From Schmidtea polychroa (Eukaryota): a DNA stretch of 64,000 nt. Each line of letters opens with the position of its first letter. Positions within the stretch are counted from its first letter, which is position 1. A program made the translations under genes and the position numbers. This document shows, in pieces, positions 30,237-49,702 of this stretch. The notes beneath the pieces were generated by a model, which searched no databases, had not been told where the DNA came from, and saw only the letters and a list, made by a program, of their open reading frames with translations. The stretch spans positions 25,422,001-25,486,000 of the forward strand of contig CM097885.1 of NCBI GenBank assembly GCA_044892525.1. The letters are read 5' to 3'.

Positions 30237-31436
30237 AGTAGATGGATTGGGCACCGCTGGCACAGGGCACCGCTAGCACAGTACCCCCCCCCCCGTCGGT
30301 AAGATTTTCAAAAATATTCTAAGTCTAAAAGTACATTTTTTTTCAAGGTCAAATTTAAACAAAGACATATGACTCATCAAGGTCATTGAAACAAAGACCA
30401 TGACTCATAGTATGACTCATCAAAATTTTCAAGGTCATTTAAACAAAGACCATGACTCGTCCTATGACTCATCAAGGTCATTTTCAAGGTCATATGACTC
30501 ATACTATGACTCATCAAGGGCAAAAGATTTTCTCAAGGTCATTTAAACAAGGTCCATGACTCATCACGGGCATTTTCAAGGTCATATGACTCATAGTATG
30601 ACTCATATGACTTTGAAAATTTTTCAAGGTCATATGACTCATAATATGACTCATCGAGGTCATTTTCAAGGTCATATGACTCATAATATGACTCATCAAG
30701 GACATTTTCAAGGTCACATGACTTATAGTATGACTCATATGACCTTGAAAAATTTTTCAAGGTCATATGACTCATAATATGACTTATCAAGGTCGTCCTC
30801 AAGGTCATATGACTCATCCGATGACTCATCAAAATTTTCAAGGTCATTTTCAAGGTCATCTGAGTCATCCTATGACTCATCAAGGTCACTTTCAAGGTCA
30901 CGTGACTCATCCAAGGTCATTCCCAAGGTCATATGACTCATCGCGATGACTCATCAAGGTCATATTATTATTTTTAAAAAATATTATTATTTTTAAAAAT
31001 ATTATTATTTTTAATTTTTTCAAAATTCCCGCCAATGAAAAATAATAATCGATAGCTCATTTTAAAGCTCAATCCAAGACCTTTCGAATGAGCTATATAT
31101 CTTGTTATTATTATTATTATTATTATTATTATTATTATTATTATTATTATTATTATTATTATTATAATTATTATTATTATTATTATTATTATTATTATTA
31201 TTATTATTATTATTATTATTATTATTATTATTATTATTATTATTATTATTATTATTAGTATTAATCTATATACACCGAGTCTATATACTCTGAGTCTATA
31301 TACTCTGAGTCTATCCGACAAAATATTTTGTCCCCCTATGGGTAATGCTCACAAGGGTACTGGTCACGTTCAACAAATCAACAAAACATACATTTATTTA
31401 AACAATAAAATAATGTAAAATTAACAAAGGTAAACT
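30237..31436 (+). repeat. Left TIR of element C with TGACTCA/CAAGGTCA array and (TTA)n
   Basis: Reverse complement of 48631-49702 apart from repeat-number differences. Confidence 0.95.
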
Positions 31437-31898
31437 AAATATTGATGTACTACTATTCGCAGCAATATTGTTTGAAATTGGTAACGTTGAATTGTTTTTC
31501 AGATATTCTATTGATCCTTTGATTGTTTGAATTTCTCTTAATAATAATTCAATCTTTTTTAACAAATAATCATGCTTCTTATCAATAATTTTCATATTCT
31601 TTTTATTTTCAACAATAGAGTTATTGAAAACTTCAATATGATCAATCAATTTAATTTTTATATTTTGTATATATTCAAATGTTAGTTCATAACTGTTTTC
31701 TAAATTCTCCAATCTTTGAGATATTCTTTTTCCTGGATGCTTTGACCATTTAGGTTTGTCGAGAATATATAAAATATCCATCAACTTGGCAGTATTCGGA
31801 CAAACACATATTGATTTATTAAAAGACTCTACTGTTATTGTTGTATTGTGTGAGCACACACTCGTTATAATAATTAGCAATATGAATATAGTTTTCAT
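31398..31898 (-). CDS. Secreted or GPI-anchored coiled-coil glycoprotein
   Basis: Signal peptide MKTIFILLIIITSVCS, several NxS/T sites, coiled coil, small-residue stretch then hydrophobic C-terminus. Confidence 0.7.
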   Translation of the reverse strand: MKTIFILLIIITSVCSHNTTITVESFNKSICVCPNTAKLMDILYILDKPKWSKHPGKRISQRLENLENSYELTFEYIQNIKIKLIDHIEVFNNSIVENKKNMKIIDKKHDYLLKKIELLLREIQTIKGSIEYLKNNSTLPISNNIAANSSTSIFSLPLLILHYFIV

Positions 31899-32003
31899 GG
31901 TGTATCAAATCAAAACCTTTCTTTTACATTTATAGTCTATCAACCAATCAAAATCATACGGTATTAGTATAAATAAAACATCATATTTTAAATTATTGTA
32001 AAA

Positions 32004-32519
32004 ATGTCTAATTTTATGGAAAATCTTTTAAGAGAACTCGTCAACAAGAATATTATGGAAAGCCTAATTTTCCTGGTCGATCGGACCGAAAAGATCATAG
32101 AAGGTAATCACATTGATTATGATGATGTGATCAATTCCGATTGTCTCGAAACCAAAAAATTCTATTTTAATAGGATTTTTAACTACCTATGCGACGAGGA
32201 GATGAAGTGGACCCGAATACTAGTAGGGTTCGCTTATATGAAGATAATAATTGAAAAAAGTCTATGGGACTCCGAGCACTATTATCAGTGGTCTCAAGAA
32301 GTAATACTTTTATTAATATTTATTTTATTAATATTTATTTTCTAGATAATCAAGTCAAAGTTTCAACCATGGATTGAAGCCAATGGCGGATGGGGCGTAC
32401 TCAATCAACTCGCCAGAAATGCAAAAGAAATAGACGATCAGAAAAGAAAATTTAAAAACTATATTAAACTTGCAACAGGTGTTGCTATTTTGTATGTTTT
32501 ATGTAGGTTTTTTAAATAA
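32004..32519 (+). CDS. Bcl-2 family protein, 2 exons (32004-32300, 32346-32519)
   Basis: BH1-like KWTRILVGFAY, BH2 PWIEANGGW after splicing a 45-nt GT-AG intron, tail anchor LATGVAILYVLCRFFK. Confidence 0.85.
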
Positions 32520-32596
32520 AAATTAATATAGTTATTTTGTTTGATTTTTAAATAAAATTTTAAATAAATTTACAAACACTAATTAATTAAGATTTA

Positions 32597-32923
32597 TTAA
32601 TTAACACATTCACAGTCTTCATCTCCACATTTCATTATATTTTCAACGACATGATCAATACAATCATTCGTAATATTATCTTTAGATTCATCTTTAGGTT
32701 CCTCTATAGGTTCATCTATAGGTTCATCTATAGGTTCCTCTATAGGTTCATCTATAGGTTCATCTATAGGTTCATAGATTTCCTCATCAATTTCTTGAGT
32801 TTCTTCCTCATCATCAAATCCTGAATCTTGACTCTCAACTAACCAGCCGATATTTAAGGCATTTGTAATAGATAATATGTCCTCAATTTTCACACCAGCT
32901 ATTTCAGCTAACTTTTCCAACAA
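32597..32923 (-). CDS. Acidic repeat protein (EPID/EPIE), 5' end uncertain
   Basis: Open frame with 12-bp repeats and DSG motif; acceptor-like tttag just upstream. Confidence 0.55.
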   Translation of the reverse strand: MLEKLAEIAGVKIEDILSITNALNIGWLVESQDSGFDDEEETQEIDEEIYEPIDEPIDEPIEEPIDEPIDEPIEEPKDESKDNITNDCIDHVVENIMKCGDEDCECVN

Positions 32924-33129
32924 AAAGTTGATTAAAAATTCTAAATAATAAATAATTCGGTAATTAATTAATAATGTTAATCTTTTTCTGTAGTCATTTT
33001 CATTACTTTAAAACTATATTATAAGTTTGTTTATAGATTTTCTTTGTTAAATTTGCATGTCATTTGCATTTATGTTGCAATTAATAAAGAGAAAAACAAA
33101 TCTGACTAATACATTTATTAAATATAACA

Positions 33130-47014: not shown

Positions 47015-47252
47015 ATAGAAAAGAAAAAACTTTATATTTTGATTTATAAAAACTTGTATTTATATAGTGATTTCATGATTTATAAAAATTGTATAAAATT
47101 TGTATAGAAACTTTTATTTAAAAAAAAACTTGTACAAAAACCTGTATTATAACTTGTATTTATATATACATATTGAATAAAATTTGTAATCAGATTTTTT
47201 TTTTTAAGTATTTGTTGTTTTATTATAATTTTTATATTTAATAGTGATTTTT

Positions 47253-47720
47253 ATATAGTCTGCAGTGAGCATGCAGCTATATCAGTATTTTTTTATATAG
47301 TCTGCAGTGAGCATGCAGCTATATCAGTATTTTTTTATATAGTCTGCAGTGAGCATGCAGCTATATAAGTATATTTTATATAGTCTGCAGTGAGCATGCA
47401 GCTATATCAATCACTATAATAAAACTTTAAACAGCTTGCATAATAATAATAATAATAATAATAATAATAATAATAATAATAATAATAATAATAATAATAA
47501 TATTAATAATAATAATATTAATAATAATAATAATAATAATATTAATAATAATAATAATAATAATATTAATAATAATAATATTAATAATAATAATAATAAT
47601 ATTAATAATAATAATAATAATAATAATAATATTAATAATAATATTAATAATAATAATAATAATAATAATAATAATAATAATAATAATAATAATAATAATA
47701 TTAAAATAATAATAATATTA
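47253..47720. repeat. ~42-bp tandem repeat x4 followed by (AAT)n microsatellite
   Basis: atatagtctgcagtgagcatgcagctatat repeated four times. Confidence 0.9.
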
Positions 47721-47992
47721 ATAAAACTTTACACAGGTTGCAAGGGTACTTGTCATGCTTATTATTATTATTATTATTGTTATACATTTGAAGGTTCAAC
47801 CATGGTTACATTTTCTACATTTTCAAACTCTAATTTGATTGGTTATCTTAATTTTATAAATGAAAAAAAATAAAAGTTATTACTGTGTTGAACAGGCTTG
47901 ACATTTTGAAACTATAATTTGATTGGTTATCTCAATTCTATAAATGTAAAAAAAAAACAAAAGTAATTTAGTTATTAAGAAATTTATTACTA

Positions 47993-48620
47993 ATGATTTC
48001 TACAAATAAAACTGATGAATATGTAAAATATTTGGTAACTTTATTATTTTGTCAATATTTTTTATATATGTCATTTATAGCAAGGAAGAAATAAGGAAAA
48101 ATTAAGTCCGACCGAAGATACGCATTCAATGAAATTTTTTAACAACACAGTTGAAGATTTTATAAATAATCATGATACTTACAGTGATAAGCAAATCATA
48201 AATATTTTAAAGATTTTCAAACATTCCTCTATTGAATATTTGATTGATTTATTTAATTATGATAAATCTATTTTAAAGTTATCTAGTTATTTAATGTACT
48301 TAGAAAAAATAGCAGTAAACAATGATTCACTGAATGAATACTTTTGGAGTTGTATGTTTTTAAGGTTGAAACCGGGATATAGTAGTTTGATTTATGAATG
48401 GATAGCGAAAGCCGATTTGATTGAAAATAAGCTAACGAAAAAACTGAGCGATGTTAAGAAAAGGTATTTAACTTGCTCAATTTGTAAAGAAAATCGAGTT
48501 TCGGTTTTGTATTTACCGTGCGGTCACGTAATTGTTTGTTCTAAGTGTAACGAGAAGATTGTTCGCAAGTGTCAAGCTTGTTCAACACTGATTAATGAAT
48601 ATCATACTATATACTTGTAA
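47993..48620 (+). CDS. IAP/MDM2-type C-terminal RING finger protein, 2 exons
   Basis: CSIC...LPCGHVIVCSKC....CQAC..I......IYL*; intron 48035-48080 joins upstream ATG in frame. Confidence 0.85.
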
Positions 48621-48630
48621 ATAAATATTA

Positions 48631-49702
48631 AGTTTACCTTTGTTAATTTTACATTATTTTATTGTTTAAATAAATGTATGTTTTGTTGATTTGTTGAACG
48701 TGACCAGTACCCTTGTGAGCATTACCCATAGGGGGACAAAATATTTTGTCGGATAGACTCAGAGTATATAGACTCAGAGTATATAGACTCGGTGTATATA
48801 GATTAATACTAATAATAATAATAATAATAATAATAATAATAATAATAATAATAATAATAATAATAATAATAATAACAAGATATATAGCTCATTCGAAAGG
48901 TCTTGGATTGAGCTTTAAAATGAGCTATCGATTATTATTTTTCGTTGGCGGGAATTTTGAAAAAATTAAAAATAATAATATTTTTAAAAATAATAATAAA
49001 AATAATAATATTTTTTAAAAATAATAATATGACCTTGATGAGTCATCGCGATGACTCATATGACCTTGGGAATGACCTTGGATGAGTCATGTGACCTTGA
49101 AAATGTCCTTGATGAGTCATAGGATGACTCAGATGACCTTGAAAATGACCTTGAAAATTTTGATGAGTCATCGGATGAGTCATATGACCTTGAGAATGAC
49201 CTTGATGAGTCATATTATGAGGCATATGATCTTGAAAAAAATTTTCAATGTCATATGAGTCATGCTATGAGTCATATGACCTTGAAAATGACCTTGATGA
49301 GTCATATAATGAGTCATATGACCTTGGGAAAATTTTTTCAAGGTCATATGAGTCATACTATAAGTCATATGGCCTGAAAATGACCTTGATGAGTCATACC
49401 ATGAGCCATATGACCTTGAAAATGACCTTGGTGAGTCATGGTCTTTGTTTAAATGACCCTGAGAAATTTTTTTGACCTTGCTGAGTCATAGTATGAGTCA
49501 TGTGACCTTGAAAATGACCTTGATGAGTCGTAGGATGAGTCATGGTCTTTGTTTCAATGACCTTGATGAGTCATATGTCTTTGTTTAAATTTGACCTTGA
49601 AAAAAAATGTACTTTTAGACTTAGAATATTTTTGAAAATCTTACCGACGGGGTGGTACTGTGCTAGCGGTGCCCTGTGCCAGCGGTGCCCAATCCATCTA
49701 CT
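48631..49702 (-). repeat. Right TIR of element C
   Basis: Reverse complement of 30237-31436. Confidence 0.95.

Follow-up and report, generated by a model that had tools for sequence, protein, structure and literature searches.

Predicted host-sized spliceosomal introns in core genes of a Polinton family from Schmidtea polychroa

We analyzed a 64,000-nucleotide stretch of DNA from Schmidtea polychroa (assembly GCA_044892525.1, contig CM097885.1, positions 25,422,001 to 25,486,000; hereafter the window, in whose numbering positions are given), at the center of which lies a Polinton/Maverick, element C. The evidence supports the view that element C belongs to a virus-type Polinton lineage carrying predicted spliceosomal introns of host size in its core genes, and that this trait is inherited across families, in line with the host-like gene architecture that a preliminary description of the window had proposed for a virus lineage. 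As that description also stated, several genes need the removal of GT-AG introns, mostly of 38-52 nt, to restore frame or motifs: 11 introns are predicted in seven of 16 genes (Bcl-2, an acidic gene, g34, integrase, protease, pPolB, and RING), each verified for phase and stop codons exon by exon, and nine of the 11 are within that size range. We infer from DNA-level evidence that these introns are actually spliced, since GT-AG ends, host-like size, and phase-compatible exons are what is expected of U2-type spliceosomal introns. The genes of the capsid block, encoding the packaging ATPase, two putative core proteins, the putative penton, and the major capsid protein (MCP), are free of introns.

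Element C and its predicted introns

Element C is a capsid-encoding Polinton/Maverick with a Beta-type PolB, that is, an adintovirus-type endogenous virus that has recently multiplied. Its initial description as a Polinton bounded by a target-site duplication (TSD) is borne out by exact ends, a 6-bp TSD (TCTCTT on both sides; in this copy 6 nt match and 7 nt do not), terminal inverted repeats (TIRs) of 1.1-1.2 kb that are 86-98% alike, segment by segment, and genes for PolB, an rve integrase, a packaging ATPase, a protease, and a double-jelly-roll MCP. Gene order is the same as in vertebrate Mavericks, and the termini, AGTAG..CTACT, are near, although not exactly, the (AGT)2 type described for Mavericks. 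The AlphaFold model of the MCP (pLDDT 65) matches the capsid proteins of SGIV, Sputnik, PBCV-1, and mavirus (Foldseek E 3e-14 to 1e-12, best probability 1.00); neither the MCP profile nor pPolB has a match in a sequence search of the PDB. The polymerase matches PHROG 1907, a DNA polymerase family (E 4e-19), and contains an EndoVII insert, and because pPolB has no PF03175 match in Pfam, which is also true of the polymerase of a sister family (S1), element C is in keeping with the Beta class that Starrett et al. describe.

Exon 1 of the integrase is identical in all 150 candidates scored out of 7,896, giving 150 as a lower bound on copy number. Since, in addition, 17 copies share 98.4-99.6% identity over 1.6 kb, the family is young and expanded. 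The copy in the window is partly dead. Aside from introns, it has breaks in the TBP tail, ahead of the integrase chromodomain, in the protease (an in-frame stop), and in the pPolB frame near 44540, and these sites are open in 17 of 18, 15 of 17, 10 of 12, and 17 of 18 scored copies, respectively.

The proposed comparison with host intron lengths places the introns of element C in the host size class: spliced alignment of host CCT genes predicts 26 introns, of which 19 measure 41-52 nt (19 of 22 if four probable artefacts of 36, 74, 704, and 1027 nt are dropped). Splice ends are canonical at 223 of 226 distinct genomic copy sites. The lengths of introns vary from copy to copy without regard to frame (protease, 37-39 nt; third pPolB intron, 46-49 nt; Bcl-2, 44 or 45 nt; long pPolB intron, 1316-1797 nt), and the length of pPolB exon 4 differs among copies only by multiples of three (165, 219, or 231). 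The neighboring element B (14820-29649) is a second, distant Polinton in which six core genes are plain open reading frames (ORFs), each having a Met in frame close to where it begins, and for this reason the introns are a lineage trait and not something that the host imposes on every Polinton.

The protease of element C starts on a micro-exon consisting of the start codon and two further nucleotides, with the intron 5 nt from the ATG. This intron is canonical in 22 of 22 places and is common to four lineages of this genome (element C, the degraded element D in the same window, and the families S1 and S2) and to metagenome contigs L095, L099, and L103/L104, the proteases of which are 49-57% identical to that of element C; it is absent from the metagenome relative L115, the protease of which is 42% identical. 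Across lineages the intron measures 37-47 nt, its lengths covering all three frames, and the donor heptamer is identical in seven of seven lineages compared. Identity of the intron interiors between families is 0.39-0.75, against 0.45-0.66 for shuffled sequences, and reaches 0.76 against 0.56 for C and D. An MCP tree groups C, S1, and S2 to the exclusion of the metagenome rows (support 97/99). Because the intron-bearing L095, L099, and L103/L104 lie outside this group, the protease intron probably predates the radiation within the genome and is an inherited part of the virus lineage. Among seven public protease homologs, two, the intronless P0222 and P0226, begin with a Met that falls precisely in the spliced register; another two continue through an intron-like stretch, and the remaining three begin farther downstream, so that the spliced-register start is missing in five. 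The Logan protein P0223, by its translation, reads through an intron-like stretch at the position of the protease intron. PF00770 is found on three of seven homologs of the sister-family protease, and matches in the PDB are weak (E 0.44-0.49, ASFV and adenovirus proteases). An alternative acceptor at 39945, giving a 48-nt intron, was rejected because of seven stops.

A second predicted intron of this kind lies in g34, at the same phase-1 position in S1 (48 nt) and S2 (45 nt); it is canonical in 19 of 19 places, and the S1 protein is ~30% identical to that of element C. There is no usable match for g34 in the ESM Atlas.

The five introns that had been claimed for pPolB are recovered, all of them in phase 1 and separating stop-free exons, but they are confined to an acidic N-terminal leader, the fifth being 1.46 kb long, and the catalytic 2.5 kb is unsplit. 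Leader introns are in phase 1 in element C (5 of 5), S1 (3 of 3), L099 (3 of 3), and element D (1 of 1), as is the last leader intron of S2. The predicted introns of the protease, g34, and the pPolB leader are thus conserved in position across divergent lineages. Introns 2 and 3 of pPolB are 85% alike and flank a duplicated exon start, and the symmetric phase-1 exons of the leader would permit exon duplication or loss without a frameshift. By eye, exon 6 shows Cys and His motifs that may belong to an N-terminal OTU-like domain, a trait of Beta adintoviruses, with no profile match. An acceptor at 42952 (67 stops) and an intron inside the catalytic part of pPolB were both rejected.

An alternative gene model, which we consider unlikely, treats exons 1-5 (40746-41488) as a separate small acidic gene and starts pPolB at an ATG at 42868 with a single 59-nt intron. 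This shorter pPolB is in phase and free of stops, and its GT..AG persists at each of the 21 loci that have it, a divergent variant among them. On the other hand, exon 5 itself contains no stop, and element A (in the same window), S1, and S2 share with element C the two ends of a long last intron, namely an xAT|GTAAG donor and an acceptor preceding G-x-x-Y-x-N-Y-C, with variable length in between (205, 571, and 1420 nt). In copies of element C this intron ranges from 1316 to 1797 nt, takes every frame, and is canonical at its ends in 16 of 16, and by eye neither S1 nor S2 has an ATG plus donor near the acceptor. The two-gene model can nevertheless coexist with the five-intron model, for example as an alternative first exon.

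Introns of two ages

The introns of element C are probably of two ages: old ones near gene starts, and young ones, in the integrase and Bcl-2 genes, gained within single families. The integrase intron, an ATT tract, interrupts the catalytic TDxG-x-EF motif; in S1, S2, and all 120 listed homologs (of 861; PF00665 is found on each of the 120) the motif is unbroken and the intron absent. The intron is canonical in 43 of 45 places. In the subfamily of element C it is pure ATT and 24-183 nt in length, and a second subfamily has a stable, interrupted 42-nt intron in 11 of 16 fetched copies, a sample biased to short inserts. Because an 8-nt repeat spans its junctions (0-3 nt at the other ten introns), this intron was probably born by duplication of a short AG|GT proto-splice site. 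The Bcl-2 intron is canonical in 16 of 16 places and, if retained, ends the frame in a stop. Its homolog in S2 is intronless (Pfam 1e-7) and shows a 16-residue alignment gap exactly at the intron of element C, whose own Bcl-2 product matches Pfam at 1.2e-5 with X placed at the break; a search for homologs yielded a single close but truncated protein. Intronless relatives therefore confirm the integrase and Bcl-2 junctions, and both introns are lineage-specific.

These young introns favor a second alternative, to which we assign a little less weight than to the two-gene pPolB model: the introns would be real but would have been gained locally, during transposon life in this host or close relatives, and would not be an old trait of a transmissible virus. 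The restriction of the integrase intron to family C, the intronless Bcl-2 of S2, and the match of intron sizes to those of the host are all in keeping with this idea, as are the failure of IMG/VR scans with the MCP, an MCP alignment, and an integrase relative to return any relative and the possibility that the intron-bearing metagenome contigs come from related hosts. It does not readily account for the protease intron in L095, L099, and L103/L104, outside the in-genome clade, for the intron-like stretch at that position in P0223, or for the phase-1 pPolB leader introns of L099.

It is much less probable that the segments are merely intron-like, that is, AT-rich insertions or microsatellite decay in dead copies. 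Element C is 70-75% AT (the 781-Mb host assembly is likewise AT-rich), the copy in the window carries several true breaks, and the integrase segment is a pure ATT run that is a multiple of three in 44 of 45 places. Yet an ATG-NN-GT...AG arrangement like that of the protease arises by chance in only 0.07-0.4% of 100,000 shuffles for each of the six lineages in which it recurs, a large subfamily has the stable, interrupted 42-nt integrase intron, and at least 150 copies with identical integrase exon 1 indicate that the family multiplied with an insert in its catalytic loop. Finally, invasion by introners (intron-generating transposons), for which there is a precedent in dinoflagellate polinton-like elements in the part of PMC11957031 drawn on here, was rejected as the least probable origin, since the short introns form no shared repeat family (pairwise identity 0.53-0.81 at ~90% AT, except for 0.85 between pPolB introns 2 and 3, which flank the duplicated exon) and junction duplications are not general, being seen at the integrase intron only.

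Expression, accessory genes, and neighboring elements

We consider it likely that host Pol II transcribes largely separate genes of element C and that the host spliceosome removes their short introns. Paired CCAAT (-50 to -71) and TATA (-36 to -54) boxes precede four genes, orf31 (CCAAT at -50, TATA at -36), Bcl-2, SSB, and RING, and CCAAT alone precedes g34 and pPolB. AATAAA occurs no more than 100 nt past the stop in eight of 12 genes tested. Thus, the earlier statement that many genes have their own CCAAT/TATA and AATAAA holds for the paired boxes of four genes, the AATAAA part being weak evidence in DNA this rich in AT. In an unbiased 7-mer count, TATAAAC precedes five of the six structural genes, with 0.03 expected for each. 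Planarian Polintons are reported to be repressed by piRNAs and released from this repression in the course of differentiation (PMC8532177). The TIRs contain word arrays (30370-30965 and 49025-49580) with 20 and 17 copies of TGACTCA and 16 and 13 copies of TCAAGGTCA, the left one having its 20 TGACTCA words within 595 nt; the left TIR also holds an ATT tract. We take these words to resemble AP-1/bZIP sites and nuclear-receptor extended half-sites, and the arrays are possibly a host-responsive enhancer.

In the mechanism that we propose, host Pol II would act in the nucleus on mostly separate transcription units in a two-tier program, CCAAT and TATA boxes driving accessory and replication genes and the TATAAAC box, perhaps recognized by the TBP that the element encodes, driving the capsid block. 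The host spliceosome would then remove the short introns from the transcripts. The first intron lies within 5-52 nt of the coding start in five of the seven split genes, and because the start codons of the protease and polymerase are on such micro-exons, translation of both would depend on splicing. pPolB and the SSB-like protein would copy the genome, the ATPase, MCP, penton, and protease would package it, the integrase would insert it, and Bcl-2 and RING would delay cell death; such roles for polymerase, capsid, integrase, and Bcl-2/RING proteins are established for those families. A DNA-only cycle lacking a spliced cDNA stage would allow introns, once gained, to persist, and introns can plausibly contribute to expression, export, or escape from silencing as a general principle.

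Several observations weigh against an inherited, spliced intron set expressed in this way. Canonical ends at nearly all copy sites, which would meet the suggestion that splice dinucleotides be compared among copies, are weak evidence when taken alone because the copies are 98.4-99.6% identical, and 1-nt differences in intron length within T-runs may be sequencing error. Some integrase introns measure 24-36 nt and one Bcl-2 intron 30 nt, against a host minimum of 41 nt among those seen, so that the copies concerned may be unspliced. Junctions in RING, the acidic gene, and the pPolB leader lack homologs that confirm the spliced protein. The third leader exon of element A is out of phase, and the first pPolB intron of S2 is in phase 0. 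The MCP tree has only 11 rows and four open forks, and L095, L099, L103, and L104 could perhaps come from hosts that are related animals. TATAAAC, moreover, stands upstream of pPolB and the acidic gene as well, and none lies ahead of the protease.

More tentatively, element C may represent a distinct, transmissible polintovirus clade with a genome organized in the manner of a host chromosome, in which the splicing of short introns acts as a host-range filter and a checkpoint for capsid maturation, with a late switch driven by its own TBP and a live record of intron birth. If this were true, the virus would replicate and mature only where the host spliceosome handles very short introns (37-52 nt). 

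An intron kept at one position from endogenous families to environmental relatives indicates that small DNA viruses of this group can retain cellular-style introns for long periods. The integrase intron, present in C, absent from its sisters, and flanked by an 8-nt duplication, is a dateable intron gain in hundreds of copies, and both the origin of introns and minimum intron length become directly testable from existing RNA-seq.

Features of element C are collected in Table 1. Accessory genes had been placed near both TIRs, and six are indeed at the left end, with RING alone at the right. The label of a host-control cassette is too strong in that it suits only Bcl-2 and the IAP-type RING, plausible anti-apoptosis genes; the element also encodes a TBP and an SSB-like OB-fold protein, both conserved in relatives, and three unassigned genes; the left cassette is therefore as much one for replication and transcription as for host control. 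The RING protein matches Pfam zf-C3HC4_3 (1.2e-10) and the RING of cIAP/XIAP (6e-9), and its intron is canonical in 17 of 17 places. The TBP homolog of S1 matches solved TBPs down to 2e-15, and TBP is also present in the metagenome relatives L099, L100, and L115. The model of the SSB-like protein is an OB fold (pLDDT 91) whose top four VIA matches are ASFV CP312R (Z 7.4), a DUF2815 phage protein, Enc34 SSB (7.0), and T7 gp2.5 (6.5), all of middling Z; the protein has 98 relatives and 36 BFVD giant-virus matches at E<=0.001. We call it SSB-like on the strength of the top four structure matches, which are SSBs or SSB-like, and of those in BFVD. The model has no Foldseek match in the PDB at E<=0.001, the family (79 members) returns nothing credible in Pfam, and there is no usable match in the ESM Atlas. 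The acidic-gene donor is degraded in this copy and canonical in 17 of 18 places, and coiled-coil matches of orf31 are below threshold. The core protein in the PZ position is conserved in relatives, and the penton candidate has no Pfam or PHROG match.

Table 1. Features of element C, in window coordinates
Feature	Positions	Strand	Introns	Remarks
Element C	30237-49702			ends AGTAG at 30237, CTACT at 49702
Left TSD, 6 bp	30231-30236			identical to 49703-49708
Right TSD	49703-49708			matches 30231-30236
Left TIR	30237-31456	+		starts AGTAG
Right TIR	48611-49702	-		ends CTACT
orf31	31398-31898	-	none	166 aa; hydrophobic N-terminus, coiled-coil-like body
Bcl-2 homolog	32004-32519	+	32301-32345 (45 nt, phase 0)	2 exons
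Acidic gene	32597-33003	-	32981-32941 (41 nt, phase 1)	2 exons
SSB-like gene	33130-33540	-	none	136 aa; OB fold, viral SSB type
g34	33811-34225	-	34173-34125 (49 nt, phase 1)	2 exons; Cys-containing
Short TBP-like gene	34302-34738	-		Pfam TBP 1.1e-9; frame broken near 34400
A32/FtsK-like packaging ATPase	34838-35464	+	none	Pfam Pox_A32 3.5e-7
Putative core protein, PZ position	35483-36016	+	none	basic; position from gene order
Small Met-Gly ORF	36020-36247	+		overlaps integrase start; conserved in S1, S2, metagenome relatives
rve integrase	36078-37222	+	36466-36594 (129 nt, phase 1)	chromodomain; frame broken near 37110
Putative minor capsid (penton)	37168-38235	+	none	by position and homology
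Putative core protein, PW position	38228-38647	+	none	position inferred
MCP	38644-39876	+	none	double jelly roll
Adenain-type protease	39893-40278	+	39898-39935 (38 nt, phase 2)	in-frame stop near 40072
pPolB, Beta type	40746-47014	+	five, phase 1	frame broken near 44540
pPolB introns		+	40792-40843, 40907-40951, 41027-41074, 41294-41344, 41489-42948	52, 45, 48, 51, 1460 nt
RING protein	47993-48620	+	48035-48080 (46 nt, phase 0)	IAP-type C3HC4, no BIR; 2 exons

Among the relatives, S1 (L129/L130; G000 C1, ~26.86 Mb) carries two SSB-like genes, one per end, and by eye this copy sits between exons resembling an amino-acid-transporter gene; an extra gene after its protease (L130, 663-1094) resembles one in L115 and has no Pfam match. 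An intron-like stretch is present in the SSB-like gene of L099 (1490-2138), whereas the element C gene has none, and the L099 pPolB, like that of S2, is oriented toward the capsid block. In L133 (1605-5574), the place of the ATPase, upstream of an S2 integrase, is taken by a second pPolB that is more divergent and has several short exons, which suggests module exchange or nesting.

Elsewhere in the window, element A (1442-10352) is a sister-family pPolB with three leader introns, folded back with an inverted second copy. The integrase frame of element B (25190-26605, minus strand) begins with a parvovirus-like PLA2 motif in the same frame. Element D (53727-63266) is a degraded mosaic whose identity to element C is 86-89% over the integrase tail and the core-MCP-protease block but 72-74% over pPolB; it has lost an internal segment, and a hAT-like transposon interrupts it at ~59086-61900. 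An intronless actin ORF (50778-51907, minus strand), either a gene or a retrocopy, adjoins element C, and a 425-aa fragment labeled by eye as a hAT-like transposase (12021-13295, minus strand) lies between elements A and B. Across the genome, the proteasome family has 151 dispersed, mostly partial matches (~positions 7-133), and CCT segment 311-454 recurs in more than 12 dispersed places, some inside long ORFs; these pieces are possibly host fragments carried by mobile elements.

Comparison with known systems

Element C has much in common with vertebrate Mavericks as presented in the consulted part of Barreat and Katzourakis 2021 (PMC8097293), namely TIRs, a 6-bp TSD, ends close to the AGT type, ATPase, PZ, and pPolB genes, an int-mcp-pw-Mcp-pro order, flanking accessory regions, and a size within 12.7-24.6 kb. 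It differs in its TBP and SSB-like genes and in its split protease, pPolB, and integrase, which depart from the intronless, single-ORF core layout; intact vertebrate Mavericks are stated there to have no introns, in agreement with Kapitonov and Jurka 2006. Where intact Mavericks are screened for or defined as sets of intronless ORFs, as that text indicates, families such as that of element C would pass for degraded ones or be annotated with incorrect N-termini. The initial claim that ORF-based surveys miss these genes is accordingly too broad: the ATPase, MCP, catalytic part of pPolB, and integrase (its intron being stop-free and a multiple of three) can be read as plain ORFs, and it is N-termini and small genes that are miscalled.

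With the Beta adintoviruses/group 1 Polintons of Starrett et al. 2021 (PMC8502044), to judge from the portion of that paper cited here, element C shares a PolB lacking pfam03175, adenain, FtsK, hexon, a putative penton, and an rve integrase. Bcl2 and IAP homologs are adintovirus cargo in that account, and TBP appears in a legend, in non-animal relatives. Unlike those adintoviruses, element C has no LxCxE Oncoid, the motif being absent from six proteins scanned. The main text of the paper contains no 'splic' and one unrelated 'intron', although its supplementary maps may bear on novelty. In nematode Mavericks, according to the relevant part of Widen et al. (10.1101/2022.07.12.499685), core genes are intronless and captured host cargo bears introns; element C is similar in having introns inside a mobile element and different in that its core viral genes carry them. 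For protists, the excerpts used here describe dinoflagellate polinton-like elements invaded by introners (PMC11957031) and group I introns in cryptophyte PLVs (PMC12220804), the former being mobile repeats, most of which arrived after integration, and the latter self-splicing, whereas those of element C are non-repetitive, apparently spliceosomal, and conserved in position. No spliceosomal introns are reported for Polinton core genes in the consulted portions of the literature, including PMC10748475, PMC11244446, PMC11296320, PMC6431247, 10.64898/2026.07.28.741278, and 10.1101/2024.03.18.585575, a negative bounded by Repbase entries and paper supplements, which could already annotate such exons.

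Adenoviruses are likewise double-jelly-roll nuclear viruses that use the host spliceosome, as element C presumably does, and in adenovirus IVa2 the first four residues are on an upstream exon (PMC7851563, in the sections used here). Adenovirus introns, according to the same sections, rarely interrupt coding sequence and serve polycistronic units; in element C, by contrast, short introns of cellular style would cut the coding sequence of separately promoted genes.

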